Shown here piece after piece: positions 8,056 through 27,111 of a stretch of 64,000 nt of DNA; within the stretch, counting starts at the first letter, position 1, and every line of letters starts with the position of its first letter. Below the pieces are notes generated by a model. That model was not told the origin of the DNA. It saw only the letters and a list, made by a program, of their open reading frames with translations, and made no database searches. Made by a program: the position numbers and the translations under genes. This DNA comes from a virus: the IMG/VR virus record IMGVR_UViG_3300028025_000092. One strand, given 5' to 3'.

Positions 8056-8148
8056 ATGAACAAGAGCTTTAATATATTACCGCTTCATAGCACGTTATTA
8101 TCTTCATCAAGAAGACCGATAACTCCTGCGAAGATCCTAGGTAATTAA
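8056..8148 (+). CDS. Leader peptide of tRNA operon 1 (MNKSFNILPLHSTLLSSSRRPITPAKILGN)
   Basis: 30-codon ORF after an A-rich leader; codons 7-24 all encode amino acids of cluster-1 tRNAs; its 3' end is the antiterminator strand. Confidence 0.8.
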   Translation: MNKSFNILPLHSTLLSSSRRPITPAKILGN

Positions 8149-8803: not shown

Positions 8804-8889
8804 GCCTGGGTGTTGAAATAGGTAGACAAGACAGACTTAAAATCTGTTGGACTGTAAAGTCCGTGCGGGTTCGATTCCCGCCCCAGGTA
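8804..8889 (+). tRNA. tRNA-Leu(TAA)
   Basis: GCCTGGG/CCCAGGT-A, ACAGA-CTTAAAA-TCTGT, variable arm. Confidence 0.95.
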
Positions 8890-8892
8890 CAT

Positions 8893-8978
8893 CCTAATGA
8901 TAGCGTCAAGCCGGATTTTGCGACTTCGTTAGGTCAGATCTGTCCAATAGGAGAGCCGGCTGCGACCCTGGACAGATC
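8893..8978 (+). ncRNA. Candidate twin-hairpin ncRNA with repeated AGCCGG..TGCGAC loop motif
   Basis: CCTAATGA/TCGTTAGG and GATCTGTCCA/TGGACAGATC stems, each enclosing AGCCGG-(n)-TGCGAC. Confidence 0.5.
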
Positions 8979-8987
8979 ACTACATTT

Positions 8988-9061
8988 GGTTCTGTAGCTC
9001 AGCTGGATAGAGCGCCACCCTTCTAAGGTGGATGTCGTTGGTTCGAATCCAACCGGGATCA
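8988..9061 (+). tRNA. tRNA-Arg(TCT)
   Basis: CCACC-CTTCTAA-GGTGG, TTCGAAT. Confidence 0.95.
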
Positions 9062-9064
9062 CAA

Positions 9065-9199
9065 TTAAGGTTGATTGGGGAATGGTGATATGAAATACCT
9101 GGTAGAGGTGGGAAGTTAATATCATCGGAGTTTGAACTACCACTAGTAATGCCAGTTGTAAAAGAGATTGTCCACTGAACCATCTTTCTCTTTCCTTAA
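9065..9199 (+). ncRNA. Candidate structured ncRNA with possible pseudoknot
   Basis: TTAAGG/CCTTAA ends; ATGGT/ACCAT; GATAT/ATATC enclosing ACCT-GGTAG-AGGT; loop GGTAG complementary to CTACC (9137-9141). Confidence 0.45.
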
Positions 9200-9204
9200 A
9201 ATAT

Positions 9205-9278
9205 GTTGGATGTAGCTCAGTTGGCAGAGCACTAGCTTGTGGCGCTAGATGTCGCCGGTTCGATCCCGGTCGTTCAAC
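9205..9278 (+). tRNA. tRNA-His(GTG) with encoded G-1
   Basis: CTAGC-TTGTGGC-GCTAG; G-1:C73 identity pair. Confidence 0.95.
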
Positions 9279-9285
9279 CATTACT

Positions 9286-9362
9286 CGGGTAGTTCGGGAG
9301 TCAGGTCACCCGGCTTGGTTTGGGACCAAGACAACTCGCAAGTTCGAATCTTGCCTACCCGA
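9286..9362 (+). tRNA. tRNA-Pro(TGG)
   Basis: CGGGTAG/CTACCCG-A, CTTGG-TTTGGGA-CCAAG. Confidence 0.93.
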
Positions 9363-9364
9363 CA

Positions 9365-9432
9365 GAAAGATCAAAGAGACCGCTAAATCGAGTTAGTGAA
9401 AATCTACATTCTCTTTGGTCTTTTCGTTTTTT
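9365..9432 (+). terminator. Long hairpin with U-rich tail (terminator or processing site)
   Basis: AAAGATCAAAGAG/CTCTTTGGTCTTT stem followed by T runs. Confidence 0.45.
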
Positions 9433-9450
9433 ATTTTCGATGTTTTACTC

Positions 9451-9458
9451 TATATTTG
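9451..9458 (+). promoter_or_regulatory. Bacteroidota-type -7 promoter element TATATTTG
   Basis: Matches TAnnTTTG, 12 nt upstream of tRNA(CAT). Confidence 0.55.
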
Positions 9459-9470
9459 TAACATCAAAAA

Positions 9471-9544
9471 GGACTTGTAGCTCAGTTGGTTAGAGCAAAT
9501 GACTCATAATCATTAGGTCCCTGGTTCGAGCCCAGGCTGGTCCA
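9471..9544 (+). tRNA. tRNA(CAT), probably Ile2 (lysidine, reads ATA)
   Basis: GG-start acceptor, AATGA-CTCATAA-TCATT, A73; lacks initiator features; elongator Met not excluded. Confidence 0.85.
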
Positions 9545-13400: not shown

Positions 13401-14969
13401 TTATCTAATTTTAGCCTGCGCAGATGCTGTAACCATTTTTCCCATTTTATCTGCTAAATCATGATCCGGACTGGCACCATCTGTTACAGCAGCCAGTGAT
13501 TCTGGGAATTTATTGTGTATTGATTTCAATAACCAGCTTGATATTTCTGCCTGTCCGTATTGTACAAAATACTCCACGATATTATAAAGAGTTTGAATAT
13601 CATACGTTTTAACTTTCTTAATAACCATTTCGCCGACGCCTCTTAGAATACTCTTGTTTTTTTCTACCCCTGGTATTTTAATCGCTGCTGCTGGATTATT
13701 CATTATAGTCTCAATGTCTCTTTCTGAGATATTTCTTAAAACATCTAGATATGCATTAAAAGCTCCTGCTGCCTCTGGACCTACCTCACTTCTAAAAATA
13801 TTTAGAATTTCCTTACTTGGTACGTCTCTCCAGCTTTTACCCCCTACGAATTTAATCTCGTCTAATAAAATTAAAGCCCCATCTGTCCATGATCTTGGCG
13901 TTGGGAATGTTTTAGACTCCTCCGTTGGATCTAATCTATGGAAAAATTGTTTATTATCGCCTAAAAAGGATACCAGTTCTGGTAAGATTTTTCCTGCCAT
14001 TTTTCCTTCGGTTGAAGATGCCCACTCACCCCATTCTTCCACGGTAGGAACATAATTAACTATAGTGAATCTGTTCGCCAATGCAAAATCAAATTCTGTA
14101 ACATTCGGTGCTTCTGCCTCTCTGTTACCTGCTGCTATAATAACCCATTTTTCCGGAAGTTGATAATCGGGAAGTCTACCCATTTGAACGAATTGCATCA
14201 ATTTATTTAACACGTTTTTATCTGCTCTATTCATTTCATCAAGGAAAATAAATCCTCCCTTTCCTTCCTTTCCATTATCTGTTGGTAGATTTGCGGGTGC
14301 ATTAAATCTAGTAAATCCCTTTCCTTGAGAAGTCATTACCCTTTTCTTTATTACATTTCCCTCAGAATCTTCTGTCTCTATATCCTGGAATGTTGGTTCT
14401 TCTATATTGTGCTGACTTGGTACCCCAGAAAAATCTTCAGGATTCATAAACTGAACATCAAGATTTTTAAAGTCCATTAGCGGAATGCCTAATTCAGTCG
14501 CTACTTCACCAACTATTTGGGTCTTACCAATTCCAGGTGCTCCATAAACGAAAATTGGTTTTGCTCTACCTCCTGATATTTTCGAGGTATAAAGTCTTCT
14601 AATCATATTTTTAAATTCCGCAGTATTTATATCTCTTACACCTTCTCGCGGATTCGGATATTCAAGTCCTACAACATCAGCTACACCTTCCATCATTCCA
14701 CCAGATCCGTGAACTTCTTCTATCTGTTTATCAATTGGACCATTTTCTGGTAAATATAACATAACTGAAGGTTTACCTGCATAAGGTTGCCCTGCTGGGA
14801 TTTTTGGAATATCACCGTTTGTTAGCTTGTCATAGAATGACTTTGCCCATCCGGTTAGTTTGTCGATAACGTTATCCTTAATCCAAGAAAATACACCTTC
14901 GTTAACAGTGTTTCTGTTTACCTGTTGTCTATCTTTGATAAAGGTCTCAAAATTGGAAACTCTTCTCAT
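13401..14969 (-). CDS. MoxR-like AAA+ ATPase
   Basis: Walker A GAPGIGKT, Walker B IFLDE, AAGNR, ALANRF, TPRSW. Confidence 0.9.
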   Translation of the reverse strand: MRRVSNFETFIKDRQQVNRNTVNEGVFSWIKDNVIDKLTGWAKSFYDKLTNGDIPKIPAGQPYAGKPSVMLYLPENGPIDKQIEEVHGSGGMMEGVADVVGLEYPNPREGVRDINTAEFKNMIRRLYTSKISGGRAKPIFVYGAPGIGKTQIVGEVATELGIPLMDFKNLDVQFMNPEDFSGVPSQHNIEEPTFQDIETEDSEGNVIKKRVMTSQGKGFTRFNAPANLPTDNGKEGKGGFIFLDEMNRADKNVLNKLMQFVQMGRLPDYQLPEKWVIIAAGNREAEAPNVTEFDFALANRFTIVNYVPTVEEWGEWASSTEGKMAGKILPELVSFLGDNKQFFHRLDPTEESKTFPTPRSWTDGALILLDEIKFVGGKSWRDVPSKEILNIFRSEVGPEAAGAFNAYLDVLRNISERDIETIMNNPAAAIKIPGVEKNKSILRGVGEMVIKKVKTYDIQTLYNIVEYFVQYGQAEISSWLLKSIHNKFPESLAAVTDGASPDHDLADKMGKMVTASAQAKIR

Positions 14970-15099
14970 TTTTTATCTTTTTTGATTTATATATCTAAGT
15001 AAATTCGACCTATCTTTATAAAAGATGAGAAAATCTAAAAATCCATAAAAATTCAGGAAGACCCAATGTCTTAACCTGCTAATTAATTATAATGATTAT

Positions 15100-15127
15100 G
15101 AAACAAACCTCAAAAAAGATATATAAC
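15100..15127 (+). promoter_or_regulatory. Promoter for tRNA operon 2 leader
   Basis: GAAAC 15100-15104, 17-nt spacer, TATAAC; overlaps GATATATA 15118-15125. Confidence 0.6.
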
Positions 15128-15143
15128 ATTCAATCAATCAAAA

Positions 15144-15230
15144 ATGGTAAATCAGAGCACATATAATAATTGCTATCAAATGTCTGAACAAGGCAATGAG
15201 ATGGATTATATGCGCACGGATCTGGTTTAA
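15144..15230 (+). CDS. Leader peptide of tRNA operon 2 (MVNQSTYNNCYQMSEQGNEMDYMRTDLV)
   Basis: 28-codon ORF; 13 of codons 3-22 are N/Q/Y/C/E; last codons plus stop form the antiterminator strand. Confidence 0.8.
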   Translation: MVNQSTYNNCYQMSEQGNEMDYMRTDLV

Positions 15231-15252
15231 CATTTTTTTAAATATATTTTTT

Positions 15253-15284
15253 AAACCCAGATCTTAATAAGGTCTGGGTTTTTT
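15253..15284 (+). terminator. Attenuator terminator of tRNA operon 2
   Basis: AAACCCAGATCTT/AAGGTCTGGGTTT stem plus T tract; alternative 13-bp pairing of GGATCTGGTTTAA (15218-15230) with TTAAACCCAGATCT (15251-15264). Confidence 0.85.
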
Positions 15285-15291
15285 ATTTGAT

Positions 15292-15362
15292 GTCGATTTG
15301 GCCGAGAGGATAGGTAGGGGTCTGCAAAACCTCTCACACAGGTTCGAATCCTGTAGTCGACT
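15292..15362 (+). tRNA. tRNA-Cys(GCA)
   Basis: GTCGATT/AGTCGAC-T, GGGGT-CTGCAAA-ACCTC. Confidence 0.93.
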
Positions 15363-15370
15363 CAGAAATT

Positions 15371-15442
15371 GGGGATGTAGCTCAGTGGTAGAGCGGGTCA
15401 CTGTTAATGACTAGGTCGTAGGTTCGAACCCTTCCATCCCCG
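15371..15442 (+). tRNA. tRNA-Asn(GTT)
   Basis: GGGGATG/CATCCCC-G, GGTCA-CTGTTAA-TGACT. Confidence 0.95.
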
Positions 15443-15448
15443 CAAAAT

Positions 15449-15520
15449 GCTCCTATCGACTAGTGGTTAGGTCACATCCCTTTCACGGATGTAGCACGGG
15501 TTCGAATCCCGTTGGGAGTA
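15449..15520 (+). tRNA. tRNA-Glu(TTC)
   Basis: CATCC-CTTTCAC-GGATG, TTCGAAT. Confidence 0.95.
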
Positions 15521-15528
15521 CAAAAATT

Positions 15529-15610
15529 GGGAGCATCGTCTAGCGGCAATGACAAGTGACTGTAAATCACTCCTCTTTCGAGTTCGCAGGTTCGAGTCCT
15601 GCTGCTCCCA
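15529..15610 (+). tRNA. tRNA-Tyr(GTA)
   Basis: AGTGA-CTGTAAA-TCACT, variable arm. Confidence 0.95.
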
Positions 15611-15617
15611 CTAAAAT

Positions 15618-15688
15618 TGCCCGATGGTGTAACGGTAGCACAACTCCCTTTGACGGAGTTAGTTTAGGTTCGAATCCTAATCGGGCAT
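15618..15688 (+). tRNA. tRNA-Gln(TTG)
   Basis: TGCCCGA/TCGGGCA, ACTCC-CTTTGAC-GGAGT. Confidence 0.95.
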
Positions 15689-15693
15689 CAGAA

Positions 15694-16302
15694 TTACCAA
15701 TAATATTTTTCCCATTCAAAATTTTCGAGGGGGGTGAAATACTTATCATATTCTTTGCGTAACGGATTACTAACTAAATTTGGCCCATGAGGGAGAACGT
15801 GGGAAATACCATATTTAGAAGCAAATTCTTTAGCTTTTGCGATAATCTCTGGCATTTTTTTGATACCTTCTTCATCATTCTTGCTATAAAATTTTGCTTC
15901 CATGCTAAATTCTTTTCCTGAATCCCTCCTAGCTCCTGGTGCAAAAATTCTAATGGGATCATATGCCATCCTTCTGTAAATATACATAGGTCGGTAATAT
16001 ATGATCTCGCACTCAAGATCCTCTAGTTTATTTCCGATATACTCTCGTATATTTTTTTCAGCACACTCCGCTCTTTTAATCTCACTATCATCTAGTGTGT
16101 ACCTGGTTTGGAATGGATAGCAGCTATCAATCAATTTATATTGCTGATTATCACTGAATAGTTCTTTCACCGCATCCTCGTTCTGTATTAGTCCTTTTAT
16201 AATGGTTCTATTATGAAGAACCAACGTAAATGTGAGATCGAAAAAATCAATTACAGATGGTGAATTAACCCCGAAATTTTCATATATTGAAACGTGCTTC
16301 AT
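15694..16302 (-). CDS. Hypothetical protein with MKHVSIYENF N-terminus
   Basis: 202-aa ORF; GATATATA upstream on minus strand (16309-16316). Confidence 0.7.
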   Translation of the reverse strand: MKHVSIYENFGVNSPSVIDFFDLTFTLVLHNRTIIKGLIQNEDAVKELFSDNQQYKLIDSCYPFQTRYTLDDSEIKRAECAEKNIREYIGNKLEDLECEIIYYRPMYIYRRMAYDPIRIFAPGARRDSGKEFSMEAKFYSKNDEEGIKKMPEIIAKAKEFASKYGISHVLPHGPNLVSNPLRKEYDKYFTPLENFEWEKYYW

Positions 16303-16400
16303 GTTTTGTATATATCTGGTAGAATTCTACATGTTTCCCTGCCCATTACCGATGGAAAAAATGAAATATTTTAACTATCATATATAAAATAAAATCCCCA

Positions 16401-17174
16401 ATGTTTAAATATCTTACAAAGGAGGAAGTCCAACAGCTTTCCTTCGATTGGAAATATAAAGGATATTCTATTATAGATCTGATCACGCCAGAAGAAGCCG
16501 ATTTAATATCGGAGAATCTAGATAATTTAAGAAAGAAAAGAAATTCGGTAGATGATAAGTACGGTGAGTATGACCCTTACATGCACCCACACAAAGAATC
16601 CGAGTTAGTGTCTAAGATCCTTGGACATCCTAAAATATTAGAATCCGTGGAGTTTATAATAAATTCGGAGATTCAAGGAATACAAACGTGGGCTTATTTT
16701 AAACCACCCGGGGAACTTGGTAGGGATGCACACCAAGATGCTTTCTATGCTCAAACACAATGGAATAAAACTGCTAATGTTAGTATATCTCTAGATAATA
16801 CCGATGAGTCAAATGGTGGTATTTGGGTTTATGAGGCTTCTCATCTTCTACCAATTTTACCTATAGAGATAGATGAGGAAAGAGCTAAGCTCAATCCAAT
16901 CAGATGGAGGAACGAGAGGGGTAAGGCTTGTGTTATGCCAGAAGGACATAATTTTAGCAAAATAACACCACATGTTAACAAAGGACAAGCAATTTTTTTG
17001 CATTCTCATATAGTTCACGGATCGAATGAGAATAAAAGCAATCGATTCAGAAGATCTATATTGAGTGGATATACTGGAAAGGGATCGCCATTTAGAAGCG
17101 GGGAACACATGAAAAGGGAACCAATCGACGTTTATGAACTAAAATTAAAATATTGGGAGGTAAAAAAACTCTAA
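16401..17174 (+). CDS. PhyH-family Fe(II)/2-oxoglutarate dioxygenase
   Basis: FKPPG..HQD, ISLDN..ESNG, HGS..N.S..R. Confidence 0.85.
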   Translation: MFKYLTKEEVQQLSFDWKYKGYSIIDLITPEEADLISENLDNLRKKRNSVDDKYGEYDPYMHPHKESELVSKILGHPKILESVEFIINSEIQGIQTWAYFKPPGELGRDAHQDAFYAQTQWNKTANVSISLDNTDESNGGIWVYEASHLLPILPIEIDEERAKLNPIRWRNERGKACVMPEGHNFSKITPHVNKGQAIFLHSHIVHGSNENKSNRFRRSILSGYTGKGSPFRSGEHMKREPIDVYELKLKYWEVKKL

Positions 17175-17184
17175 TAGATTTTAC

Positions 17185-18396
17185 ATGAAGCTGATACAAA
17201 CGTTCGTTCCTAATAAGTTTGATCTAAAAAAAGAGAATGATAAAGATATAATCTGGAAGGATTTAATGTATGTTCAAATGCTCAGTGTTCTACTTGCTAA
17301 TAGGGAATATGGGGGTATTTCATTATACACTAATAGAAAAATAAAAAATCAAATATTAGACATAGGTGTTCCCTACACCAATATTGATACCGATATATTA
17401 CAGGACACTACATCCGATTTATTCTGTATACCAAAACTTAGAATATACAAAGAAATAAAGGAGCCATTTGTTCATATAGATACGGATACCCTCGTATACG
17501 ATAGAATAGATTTTTCTAAATATAATGCATCAGTAGTATATTCACATCCTGATCTTAGACCACCAGTTCATAAAAATTGTGACGATAAATTACTTGATAT
17601 CTTTAATAATTATCCATCATTGGGTGATTCTGACTCCTTTTTTAAATCTGCCAAGGTAACATACCTCGATTTATTTAATAAATTAACTAATGAACATTCG
17701 GAATTTAAATTAAATAACATTAGGATAGGGGATATTCCTAATATGAATGTAGTTATCGTTAATGATTATGATAGTTTTAATTTGGCAGCACAAATGTCAC
17801 TAGATCACTATATAAAAAATAAGGATCTAATAGACAATACTAAAAACGGGGAATGTTACATTGAACAGCTTATGATTCATTTAAACCTGATGGAAATAAG
17901 TCAAAAATACAGGGAAGAGGTAGGATTGAAACAAACATTCATTCTTAAAGATTCACCTCTCATGCTTGATGCTAATTTTGGAGCCAACTTAGATAGTATA
18001 GAATTTCCCTTCACTATGATACACAATTCACATAAAGATTCTGAAATAGATGAAACAATTCTTATTAATGGTGTATTATATTCAAAGAAAATGGAATATC
18101 ACGAGCATTACGGTAGAATAACTAGAATTAACACGACGGAGGACATTGTAAAACTCTTCGATTTTAATTTCTATGGTCTTTCTCATCTTTCCTTTTATAA
18201 ATGGTCTGAAATTTTTCAGGCAATAGTAATAGGGTATATTATAAAAAACTTTGGTGAAGAATATGTTAGAAATATTTATGAATATTACAAAACAATCTAT
18301 CCGTCGTTATATAATCTTCCTCCATTATCTAAAGGCGAAATATTATACCAAAAATTGACAGGATTTAAATTTGAAAGGATAAAAGGTTTGATCTGA
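17185..18396 (+). CDS. Putative glycosyltransferase (DUF6734-like)
   Basis: ISLYTN...PKLRIY...EPFVHIDTD (DxD), IEQ motif. Confidence 0.55.
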   Translation: MKLIQTFVPNKFDLKKENDKDIIWKDLMYVQMLSVLLANREYGGISLYTNRKIKNQILDIGVPYTNIDTDILQDTTSDLFCIPKLRIYKEIKEPFVHIDTDTLVYDRIDFSKYNASVVYSHPDLRPPVHKNCDDKLLDIFNNYPSLGDSDSFFKSAKVTYLDLFNKLTNEHSEFKLNNIRIGDIPNMNVVIVNDYDSFNLAAQMSLDHYIKNKDLIDNTKNGECYIEQLMIHLNLMEISQKYREEVGLKQTFILKDSPLMLDANFGANLDSIEFPFTMIHNSHKDSEIDETILINGVLYSKKMEYHEHYGRITRINTTEDIVKLFDFNFYGLSHLSFYKWSEIFQAIVIGYIIKNFGEEYVRNIYEYYKTIYPSLYNLPPLSKGEILYQKLTGFKFERIKGLI

Positions 18397-18404
18397 ATAA
18401 AAAT

Positions 18405-18477
18405 GCGGGAGTAGCTCATTTGGTAGAGCGATAGCCTTCCAAGCTATAGGTGGCCGGTTCGAGCCCGGTCTCCCGCT
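18405..18477 (+). tRNA. tRNA-Gly(TCC)
   Basis: GCGGGAG/CTCCCGC-T, ATAGC-CTTCCAA-GCTAT. Confidence 0.95.
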
Positions 18478-18574
18478 CACACTAAACCAGAATATGCATA
18501 ATAAACTATTCCGGTTTATTTATCAAAAATAGGTTTATTAGGTTACTGTAATATCGAAAATAAAATATAATAAA

Positions 18575-18808
18575 ATGTCACAATCAAGAGTAGTTAAAGC
18601 CTTACTAGCTGGTGCAATTGCTGAAAGAGAGCATGCTCTAATGTCTTTAGAACTTCTAACAGAAAAGTCAGTTGGAATTGGAGATCATACAGCAAACGAT
18701 TTTTTAAAAGATGCAGAGATTGCATTACAGAGGTTAGTAGATGCTGATGATAAGATAGAAGCCATCAATAAGTATTTTTCAGAAGGCAAATTAAGGGAAT
18801 CTGTTTAA
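18575..18808 (+). CDS. Hypothetical helical protein
   Basis: 77 aa, VGIGDH motif, A-rich leader. Confidence 0.7.
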   Translation: MSQSRVVKALLAGAIAEREHALMSLELLTEKSVGIGDHTANDFLKDAEIALQRLVDADDKIEAINKYFSEGKLRESV

Positions 18809-18843
18809 GAATATATAAATTTTATATTTAACACTAATTATAC

Positions 18844-19001
18844 TGGTCGGTGATGAAAAGCGTATGCACGGCAGACATGCCCTCCTGTCTCGAGGGTGCG
18901 GATAACGAGATAGATAAATGGTAATGGGTTGACCACACGCTTGCAAGCATAAGTGCCATTTATTGAATTGCCGCATGGGGGTTCGAATCCTTCCTGACCA
19001 G
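18844..19001 (+). tRNA. Giant (158 nt) tRNA-Asp(GTC)-like RNA with 80-nt variable arm
   Basis: TGGTCGG/CTGACCA-G73; CCCTC-CTGTCTC-GAGGG; GGGGG-TTCGAAT-CCTTC; long paired variable region. Confidence 0.75.
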
Positions 19002-19115
19002 CATTGAACATGGATTCAGCTCCTCCTACCTCTAGTAGTAAAAGTCATATGATGCGCAGTATGATGTTAGATGTTCACCCTCACTTATATTGGGGTTTAA
19101 GAGTAGGATACATTA

Positions 19116-19144
19116 AAAACCCAGATCTAAAAGATCTGGGTTTT
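19116..19144. terminator. Bidirectional intrinsic terminator
   Basis: AAAACCCAGATCT-AAA-AGATCTGGGTTTT between convergent units. Confidence 0.85.
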
Positions 19145-19173
19145 ATTTTTGGAATATTTAAATTACAATAGAA

Positions 19174-19776
19174 TTATTTATGATCCTTTGGACTGCAAAT
19201 CATTTCTAATTGATCCCATTTAAATTTTGGTTTTTCGTTTAGAAAAACAAAGCATCTCCATTTTTTCTGAGATTCAAAATAAATATGTTTTTGTAGATAT
19301 GAAGGAATGGCTGCATTAGTAGCAACTCTTTTTACCGGATTATCAAAAAATATTTTAATTAAAACTGTTAAATTTTCGGTGTCGTCCCATTTTCTAATCT
19401 GCTCTTCCAGCATTCTCCATTCCCCTCTATTTAAATATTGATTCTGCATTATACAATTAAGATAAGAAAAGGTTTGCTTTAAATTTTCCATGTTATCTGA
19501 AAATGTAGCGGCGGGTGCTCCGTGTCCTTTGTCATAAACATTCTTTATATAATCTTCACCATCGGATGTTTTAATTGTCTTCTCCGGGTAAAAATCCATT
19601 GATCCCCTATTAACATTAGTTGGTCTATTAGTAGATCTGTACTTAATCCATAAAGGTTGCTCTAATTTTTGAGAATAGAGTACTTCAAAAACCTGATTTT
19701 TTATTCTGACTGTATCCTGTGCTTTTAATCCAATTGATAGTGTAAGAATCAATAATAGCGTTAGAAATTTCTTCAT
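19174..19776 (-). CDS. Secreted DNA/RNA non-specific (beta-beta-alpha-Me) endonuclease
   Basis: Signal peptide MKKFLTLLLILTLSIGLKA; YDKGH (DRGH-like), TF..LN..Q...NRG.W..LE. Confidence 0.85.
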   Translation of the reverse strand: MKKFLTLLLILTLSIGLKAQDTVRIKNQVFEVLYSQKLEQPLWIKYRSTNRPTNVNRGSMDFYPEKTIKTSDGEDYIKNVYDKGHGAPAATFSDNMENLKQTFSYLNCIMQNQYLNRGEWRMLEEQIRKWDDTENLTVLIKIFFDNPVKRVATNAAIPSYLQKHIYFESQKKWRCFVFLNEKPKFKWDQLEMICSPKDHK

Positions 19777-22443: not shown

Positions 22444-22529
22444 TATTTTTATATATCGAAAAATAAAACCGCTCAATAATGAAATATTATTAAGGTTTAG
22501 GGATAGAAATAAAGAAATATCACACAACA

Positions 22530-26601: not shown

Positions 26602-27063
26602 GTGTCTTCCAGAATTTTCAAAAAAATAGGTAGTGACGAAACTGTGGATCTTTTAGATTATGTTAGATCCGTGATGGAGAAAAAACCAGGAACTAAGATC
26701 TATGTTGGGTGTGACAGCCAAAGTTATGCTAATAAAACTATTTACGTGACAACCGTTGTTTTTAGATACCATAAAAGGGGAGCACACGTAATTTATAAAA
26801 AAGAAATAGTGCCTAAAGTTAAAGATCTGTGGACTAAGCTTTGGGGTGAATTACAAAGATCTATAGATATTGCGGGCTATCTAAAAATAGAGGGTCAAAT
26901 AGAGATATACCAAATAGACCTTGATTATAACACAAATCCCAAACACAAATCAAACATGATAGTAAAAACTGCTATAGGATATATGGAAAGCATGGGATAT
27001 AATTACGCAATAAAACCCCAAACCCTTATTGCAATTAGTATTGCTAATGAACTTTGTCGATGA
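26602..27063 (+). CDS. RNase H-like YkuK (DUF458) family protein
   Basis: IYVGCDSQ...L..E...S...IDLDYN. Confidence 0.8.
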   Translation: MSSRIFKKIGSDETVDLLDYVRSVMEKKPGTKIYVGCDSQSYANKTIYVTTVVFRYHKRGAHVIYKKEIVPKVKDLWTKLWGELQRSIDIAGYLKIEGQIEIYQIDLDYNTNPKHKSNMIVKTAIGYMESMGYNYAIKPQTLIAISIANELCR

Positions 27064-27111
27064 AACAAACCACGATAAAGATATATAATGACTAAATTAA
27101 TAAATAAAAAC

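Follow-up and report, generated by a model that had tools for sequence, protein, structure and literature searches.

A probable leader-peptide attenuator in front of a five-tRNA array of an uncultured freshwater virus

The five tRNA genes of array 2 in the viral DNA analysed here are probably controlled by a trp-type, ribosome-mediated transcription attenuator, which would place tRNA supply under negative feedback. This reading, for which there are no experimental data, concerns a stretch of 64,000 nucleotides from the virus record IMGVR_UViG_3300028025_000092 of IMG/VR, referred to throughout as the window. A leader-peptide attenuator had been proposed at this place in the original prediction, and the proposal is supported in that all of its sequence-level features are present and are kept in 12 further homologues, its function being inferred. 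At the level of DNA sequence, the features that can be established are a short open reading frame (ORF), three alternative helices, a terminator, their conservation and a correspondence between the codons of the ORF and the tRNAs that follow it.

The array consists of tRNA-Cys(GCA), tRNA-Asn(GTT), tRNA-Glu(TTC), tRNA-Tyr(GTA) and tRNA-Gln(TTG), arranged head to tail on the plus strand at 15292-15689 and called by ARAGORN and Rfam. DNA and protein searches of the GenBank phage collection found no close relative of the window; the best protein match, at 30% identity, was to an uncultured phage of 462 kb, and matches at the DNA level reflected generic tRNA similarity only. The nearest record is an IMG/VR contig that has 44% of sampled words in common with the window and is identical to it over 14900-15800. 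The family of leaders and arrays is found on lake and freshwater contigs, the largest of which reach 219-245 kb, and is abundant in lake metagenomes. A Shine-Dalgarno-like tetramer precedes only three of the 49 long ORFs of the window, and the bases before their start codons are A-rich and G-poor, a start context that matches the initiation style of Bacteroidota hosts; the host itself was not identified.

The next gene upstream of the array encodes a MoxR-like AAA ATPase (13401-14969, minus strand) and is divergent from it. The intergenic stretch between them, 14970-15291, must therefore hold the start of tRNA transcription, and, given that the upstream gene lies on the opposite strand, the hairpin found before tRNA-Cys has no upstream gene to terminate. 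This stretch contains, in this order, promoter-like blocks, an ORF of 28 codons and a 13-pair hairpin with a T tract. Only one promoter-like site is visible for the array-2 tRNAs, and the terminator stands between that site and the tRNAs. The site, at 15100-15126 on the plus strand and 17 nt before the ATG of the leader, is composed of GAAAC, a 13-nt spacer and GATATATAA, and both blocks are kept in 13 of 13 aligned homologues. The nine-base block GATATATAA has seven copies in the window, against 1.9 expected, and lies 5-23 nt before leader 1 (the leader of the sister attenuator before array 1), the AAA ATPase gene and other genes, including those at 22457(-) and 27080(+). It is inferred to be a phage promoter element, its promoter function being likewise an inference. 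At 27051-27088, a gene of 62 codons stands behind the same extended element as the leader of array 2 (ATGAAACAAACC, spacer, GATATATAA), which points to a shared promoter class.

The ORF, called leader 2, occupies 15144-15230 on the plus strand and has 28 sense codons and a TAA stop; its start context is A-rich and without a Shine-Dalgarno sequence, like that of the real genes of the window. It is followed by an intrinsic terminator at 15253-15288, composed of a 13-pair hairpin (stem 15253-15281; -16.7 kcal/mol) and a T-rich tract. The stem had been predicted to end 7 nt before tRNA-Cys, a distance that is correct for the end of the run of six Ts, while the stem itself ends 10 nt before the tRNA. 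Segment 1 (15140-15156) covers the start-codon region and codons 2-5 and pairs with 15221-15237, forming the anti-antiterminator helix 1:2. Segment 2 (15218-15230), the 5' arm of the antiterminator, covers the final four and a half codons plus the TAA, and segment 3 (15251-15264) can pair either with segment 2, giving the antiterminator, or with segment 4, giving the terminator; all of these segments are on the plus strand. The antiterminator of the original prediction is reproduced, with 13 pairs between 15218-15230 and 15251-15264, one bulged C, the stop codon inside the helix and a stability of -11.0 kcal/mol.

Three helices compete, namely 1:2, 2:3 and 3:4, the last being the terminator, and the ORF, antiterminator, terminator and tRNA array follow one another in the order and with the spacing that an attenuator calls for. 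Helix 1:2 is present in the minimum free energy (MFE) fold of the leader, and the leader RNA folds much more stably than shuffled sequences, with a z of -5.8. Ribosome stalling was modelled by folding with the ribosome-covered RNA masked. With the ribosome at the stop codon, segment 2 is hidden and the terminator alone is formed. A ribosome stalled at codon 8 or 15 allows all 13 pairs of the antiterminator to assemble while segment 4 is still to be transcribed, and one stalled at the last Tyr codon leaves the antiterminator weakened, at -5.4. No curated Rfam family covers the leader, the best hit being L20_leader at 24.5 bits against a cut-off of 58.7. A T-box riboswitch was also considered and rejected, with no match at E<=1 in 14900-19200 and a conserved ORF in its place. 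The core of the hairpin (CCCAGATC...) is reused elsewhere: at 19116-19144 of the window it serves as the ordinary terminator of a convergent gene near tRNA-Gly, similar reuse is seen in the homologous loci L032, L065, L078, L084 and L104, and in relatives CCCAGATC is also the terminator of attenuator 1, of which the window has a co-varied version.

From these elements the following mechanism can be proposed, in which the promoter, the translation of the ORF, the stalling and the translation-dependent read-through are all inferred. Transcription would start at the promoter-like motif and a ribosome would load on the 28-codon leader. If the codons for Asn, Gln, Tyr, Glu and Cys (and for Met, Asp and Gly) were decoded smoothly, the ribosome would reach the TAA and cover segment 2, the 3:4 terminator would form and RNA polymerase would halt about 10 nt before tRNA-Cys. 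If the ribosome stalled in the core for want of a usable cognate tRNA, segment 2 would be free to pair with segment 3, and this pairing would block the terminator and let the Cys-Asn-Glu-Tyr-Gln array be transcribed. When the leader is not translated, segment 1 would pair with segment 2, making termination the default. The predicted outcome is a negative feedback in which the tRNA set is made on demand and switched off once decoding of those codons is fast again. The geometry is the weak point of this proposal and counts against it: segment 1 occupies codons 1-5 and could be masked only by a ribosome stalled at about codons 4-10, and how stalls at codons 14-22 stop segment 1 from recapturing segment 2 is unexplained. 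A queued second ribosome or steric hindrance might offer a way out, and both are guesses.

The conservation of the element was assessed in homologues reached via the neighbouring ATPase, via the hairpin pattern in metagenomes and via IMG/VR, from which an alignment (A1) of 13 distinct versions, the window and 12 others, was built with sequences of lake metagenomes and IMG/VR. The promoter blocks, the ATG, the open frame, the stop in segment 2 and the terminator are kept in all 12 others. Their frame is open over 26-27 sense codons, with one in-frame 3-nt indel, and the distance from the stop codon, which falls within segment 2 in every homologue, to the terminator core is always 24-26 nt. In three loci the frame is extended by upstream ATGs, which overlap the promoter blocks and probably do not serve as starts. 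The terminator sequence was a fixed part of the pattern used to search the metagenomes; the loci L011, L013 and L016, found through the neighbouring protein and not through the hairpin, have the same terminator, so its conservation is not just an effect of the pattern. Further searches of IMG/VR, whether with the neighbouring protein, a tRNA-Cys 3' pattern or a leader pattern, yielded only the near-identical G001 and leader types already in the set, and among distant AAA ATPase homologues (51-63% identity) synteny with tRNA arrays is lost and no further leaders were found.

Nucleotide identity among the homologues is 81%. In helix 1:2, 81% of cells are paired over the 13 homologues, compared with 26-45% in slid controls, three pairs change on both sides and none of 500 shuffles matches the covariation score; one of the compensatory pairs joins the base before the ATG to the base immediately 3' of a conserved ACAT, which comes after the stop. 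Helix 2:3 has 76% of cells paired and is almost invariant, and there is therefore little covariation to read in it. A three-way covariation cannot be read for attenuator 2, because the terminator is near-invariant and was fixed by the metagenome pattern.

The codon content of the leader is the second line of evidence. Its regulatory core, codons 3-22, is rich in Asn, Gln, Tyr, Glu and Cys and also has Met, Asp and Gly. The count given in the original prediction, 13 of these 20 codons for amino acids of the array (four Asn, three Gln, three Tyr, two Glu and one Cys), is exact. Over the 27 codons after the start, 13 are among the ten codons read by the five array tRNAs, with a binomial P of 1.5e-3 to 4.3e-3 under nulls of window or local base composition. 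Codons of this set make up 20.7% of the real genes of the window, and only two of its 238 small ATG ORFs match the share found in leader 2. Leader 1, at 8056-8148, has 18 of 29 codons in the array-1 set and 3 in the array-2 set, and leader 2 has 4 and 13, respectively, giving a leader-by-array cross table with a Fisher P of 2e-4.

The way in which the leader varies among homologues is less simple to interpret. Its variable sites are distributed as 14/13/15 over the three codon positions, without third-position excess, so that translation of the leader is not proven by the usual signature. This pattern is compatible with a leader selected for codon class and not for peptide, and equally with a non-coding element. 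Several residues are invariant, and single alignment columns hold C/Y/F, E/K/G, M/G/E or D/N/Y; as judged from this alignment, the codon class is kept and the peptide sequence as such is not conserved. When the tRNAs present in any homologous array are taken as a family set (C, N, M, E, K, Y, Q, D, G and F), 17 of the 20 core codons of the window leader belong to it (P 2.5e-4), as do 16-19 of 20 in all 13 homologues. Moreover, replacements at in-set columns stay in the family set in 15 of 18 cases, against a null of 0.45 (P 4e-4). Under the strict set of the five amino acids of the window the same comparison fails, with 2 of 8 retained, as the substitutions are to Lys, Gly and Phe. The chance that the 56 observed changes would make no stop is P 0.02-0.05, which, in codons that are stop-prone, is only modestly significant.

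Four leader types can be distinguished by the residues around codons 7-11, YNNCYQ, YNCNQ, YNYYQ and YNFNQ. The two types that bear Cys precede arrays that start with tRNA-Cys (nine loci) and the two without Cys precede arrays that start with tRNA-Asn (five loci), the Cys codon having been swapped for Tyr in one clade and for Phe in another. The locus L011 is discordant, with two Cys codons and a Lys codon, yet without tRNA-Cys and tRNA-Lys. An internal Lys codon is present in the leaders of all seven arrays with tRNA-Lys, in differing columns, compared with two of the eight arrays without this tRNA, and in the homologue loci the presence of tRNA-Met does not track the Met codons of the leader. 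On a tree of the shared tRNAs, the tracking of Cys and Lys amounts to only two or three independent contrasts, all in the same direction, and significance is impossible at this sample size. The locus L013 is a mosaic, in which a leader of the window type is joined to tRNAs that group with the L085 type, so there has been recombination of leader and array modules between lineages.

The sister attenuator before array 1 varies in a manner that can be read. Between the window type and relatives, its segments 2, 3 and 4 change together, from CTAGG / CCTAG / TTAGG to CTGGG / CCCAG / CTGGG, with G-U intermediates in L016 and L022, a three-way covariation that would not be expected unless segment 3 paired with both partners. 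Most of the changes in leader 1 are synonymous or remain within the array-1 set. Two AGC codons of leader 1 have no reader in array 1 of the window, and array 1 of relatives has a tRNA-Ser(GCT), which reads them. A gap of 107 nt from tRNA-Pro to tRNA-Met(CAT) in the window (9364-9470) lies where relatives hold this tRNA-Ser(GCT), and it resembles that gene only weakly and locally, around the anticodon.

The alternative that survives best, although we regard it as unlikely, is an attenuator that senses general translation capacity or the coupling of transcription and translation, the codons being incidental to an A-rich leader; what is sensed could then be ribosome availability or the take-over of translation by the phage, and not the supply of specific tRNAs. 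It accepts the alternative helices and the ORF as real, and the position of segment 1 at the start codon suits a simple switch between translated and not translated. The leader region has 74% A+T, which alone raises the number of NAN codons, but composition-aware nulls still give P values of 0.002-0.004 and 2.5e-4, leader 1 has a complementary codon set that fits its own array although it lies in equally A+T-rich DNA, and replacements in leader 2 stay inside the family tRNA set.

The history of the array also bears on the codons of the leader. The original prediction inferred that the array was once longer, and this inference gains support from relatives in which tRNA-Gly, tRNA-Asp, tRNA-Met and tRNA-Lys are contiguous with it. 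The comparison it had suggested, for contiguous Gly, Asp and Met tRNAs, found tRNA-Gly in L032 (contiguous with Asn-Glu-Tyr-Gln), tRNA-Asp in L053 and L084, and tRNA-Met(CAT) in six relatives; tRNA-Lys is present in seven. Array 2 of the window is therefore a reduced version. Downstream of it, the predicted tRNA-Gly was found by both ARAGORN and Rfam as tRNA-Gly(TCC) at 18405-18478 on the plus strand, and the predicted Asp-like tRNA could not be sustained, as 18844-19001 gave no call by ARAGORN and none by Rfam at E<=1. Three genes, one of which has the opposite orientation, separate the tRNA-Gly from array 2, and it is probably a former member of the array, cut off by the insertion of these genes.

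Other arrays of the family have rearrangements of their own. In L013, a gene for a 231-aa DUF559 / MTES_1575 protein (Vsr-like endonuclease) lies between tRNA-Cys and tRNA-Asn (8838-9533), and L085 has about 750 nt between these two tRNAs, at the same insertion place; the DUF559 gene looks like an insertion of the homing-endonuclease type that splits the operon. At 2760-2890 of L022, a tRNA-like element of about 130 nt follows tRNA-Tyr, where relatives hold tRNA-Gln; the element possesses an acceptor-like stem as well as a T arm, is not called by ARAGORN and could be a tRNA that contains a long insert, comparable to the odd element reported at 18844-19001 of the window. In the same 245-kb IMG/VR contig, arrays 1 and 2 are adjacent, with attenuator 2 directly between them (L022:1013-2760), so the MoxR / DUF2201 block of about 5.6 kb that stands between the two arrays in the window is an insertion or rearrangement relative to L022.

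This adjacency allows a second alternative, namely that the element is non-coding, either a terminator of upstream transcription or a processing hairpin that stabilises the tRNA precursor, with the ORF as a chance frame. In L022 the element does stand directly after array 1, the hairpin core also serves, at 19116-19144 and in relatives, as the ordinary terminator of a convergent gene, and at 81% nucleotide identity the ORF could persist passively, the probability of no stop arising being only 0.02-0.05. We give this alternative very little credence, since the upstream gene is divergent in the window and in most relatives, and since it accounts neither for the in-frame indel, the constant length of the frame and the position of the stop in segment 2 nor for the in-set replacements, the tracking of Cys and Lys and the compensatory pairing of the start-codon region with the region after the stop. 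Least credible of all is that the ORF encodes a functional micro-peptide and has a leaky terminator of its own, with the tRNAs co-transcribed by constitutive read-through, for although the ORF is conserved with a promoter-like motif, a normal start context and several invariant residues, it has no third-position bias and undergoes radical replacements (C/Y/F, E/K/G, M/G/E, D/N/Y), its stop always falls within the antiterminator arm, with constant spacing to the terminator, and a hairpin of -16.7 kcal/mol with a U tract, placed 10 nt ahead of the first tRNA, would, if unregulated, make most transcription unproductive.

RNA data are limited to assembled contigs of four lake or freshwater metatranscriptome runs, from which levels, ends and strand cannot be read, and the absence of contig cover at 14993-15116 carries no meaning. 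One 157-nt contig of a lake metatranscriptome spans 15146-15302, and thus the leader, the hairpins and the first bases of tRNA-Cys; a second record, flanked by adaptor letters, starts at 15272 in the 3' arm of the terminator and runs into tRNA-Cys. Both are compatible with read-through precursors, a weak hint at most, with carry-over of DNA not excluded. No RNA contig of the four runs bridges the termination point with 31 letters on both sides. Additionally, in contigs of two lake metatranscriptome runs 15365 is followed directly by 15524, with an 8-letter repeat at the junction and 158 nt, including tRNA-Asn and tRNA-Glu, left out, which could be a deletion variant of the array or a jump of reverse transcription or assembly between similar tRNA spacers.

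Leader-peptide attenuators that respond to several amino acids are well known, such as the ilvGMEDA leader (Ile/Leu/Val) and the thr leader (Thr/Ile), in addition to trpL, hisL, leuL and pheL. The proposed phage attenuator is similar to these enterobacterial systems in its short translated leader with regulatory codons for several amino acids, in its 1:2, 2:3 and 3:4 helices, in the intrinsic terminator directly before the regulated genes, in the masking of segment 2 by a ribosome at the stop and in an antiterminator weaker than the terminator. It differs from them in that it regulates five tRNAs instead of biosynthetic enzymes, so that its output would be the very molecule it senses, and in that its leader covers five to ten amino acids without long runs of a single codon. 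It is also phage-borne, starts without a Shine-Dalgarno sequence and includes the start codon in segment 1, and it has no relation in sequence or Rfam leader family to trpL, hisL, ilvL and others.

Among regulators of the translation apparatus, the pheST operon of E. coli, with its pheM leader, is comparable in that leader-peptide attenuation controls a component of that apparatus by sensing its own cognate codons, but pheST encodes a synthetase for one amino acid in a cellular genome, whereas the phage element precedes whole blocks of tRNAs. T-box elements likewise use a terminator and an antiterminator to read a specific tRNA pool and adjust the genes that serve that tRNA; unlike the element described here, they bind uncharged tRNA through a specifier codon and the T-box motif, without translation. 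The clustering of tRNA genes in an A+T-rich genome is common to T4, T5 and other large phages. Such clusters are read either as compensation for codon usage or as replacement of tRNAs cut by defence nucleases, a matter under debate, and tRNA genes are usually regarded as controlled by growth rate or constitutive. Among the papers open to full-text search there was no description of leader-peptide control of phage tRNA clusters, or of tRNA genes in phages or cells. What would be new is not the mechanism, which is old, but the class of regulated gene and a loop whose product is the sensed molecule.

If a codon-mirroring leader and a conditional terminator do act together in this way, the phage would gauge the decoding speed of defined sets of codons and adjust its tRNA output, and the leaders would be a direct read-out of the tRNAs that limit infection. 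Leader-peptide attenuation would then extend from metabolism to the translation machinery itself, and the element would serve as a compact natural sensor of how well specific tRNAs are supplied. A more specific reading, which is possible and remains tentative, is that both leaders sense tRNA depletion through the decoding speed of two complementary codon sets and resupply the missing block of tRNAs. Under this reading, host tRNAs that are scarce for an A+T-rich phage or are cut by anticodon nucleases would be replaced on demand; the array-2 set (Asn, Tyr, Asp, Lys, Glu and Gln) overlaps the known targets of such nucleases. Should depletion sensing be true, these viruses would carry a closed-loop controller of the tRNA pool and, possibly, a counter-defence switch.
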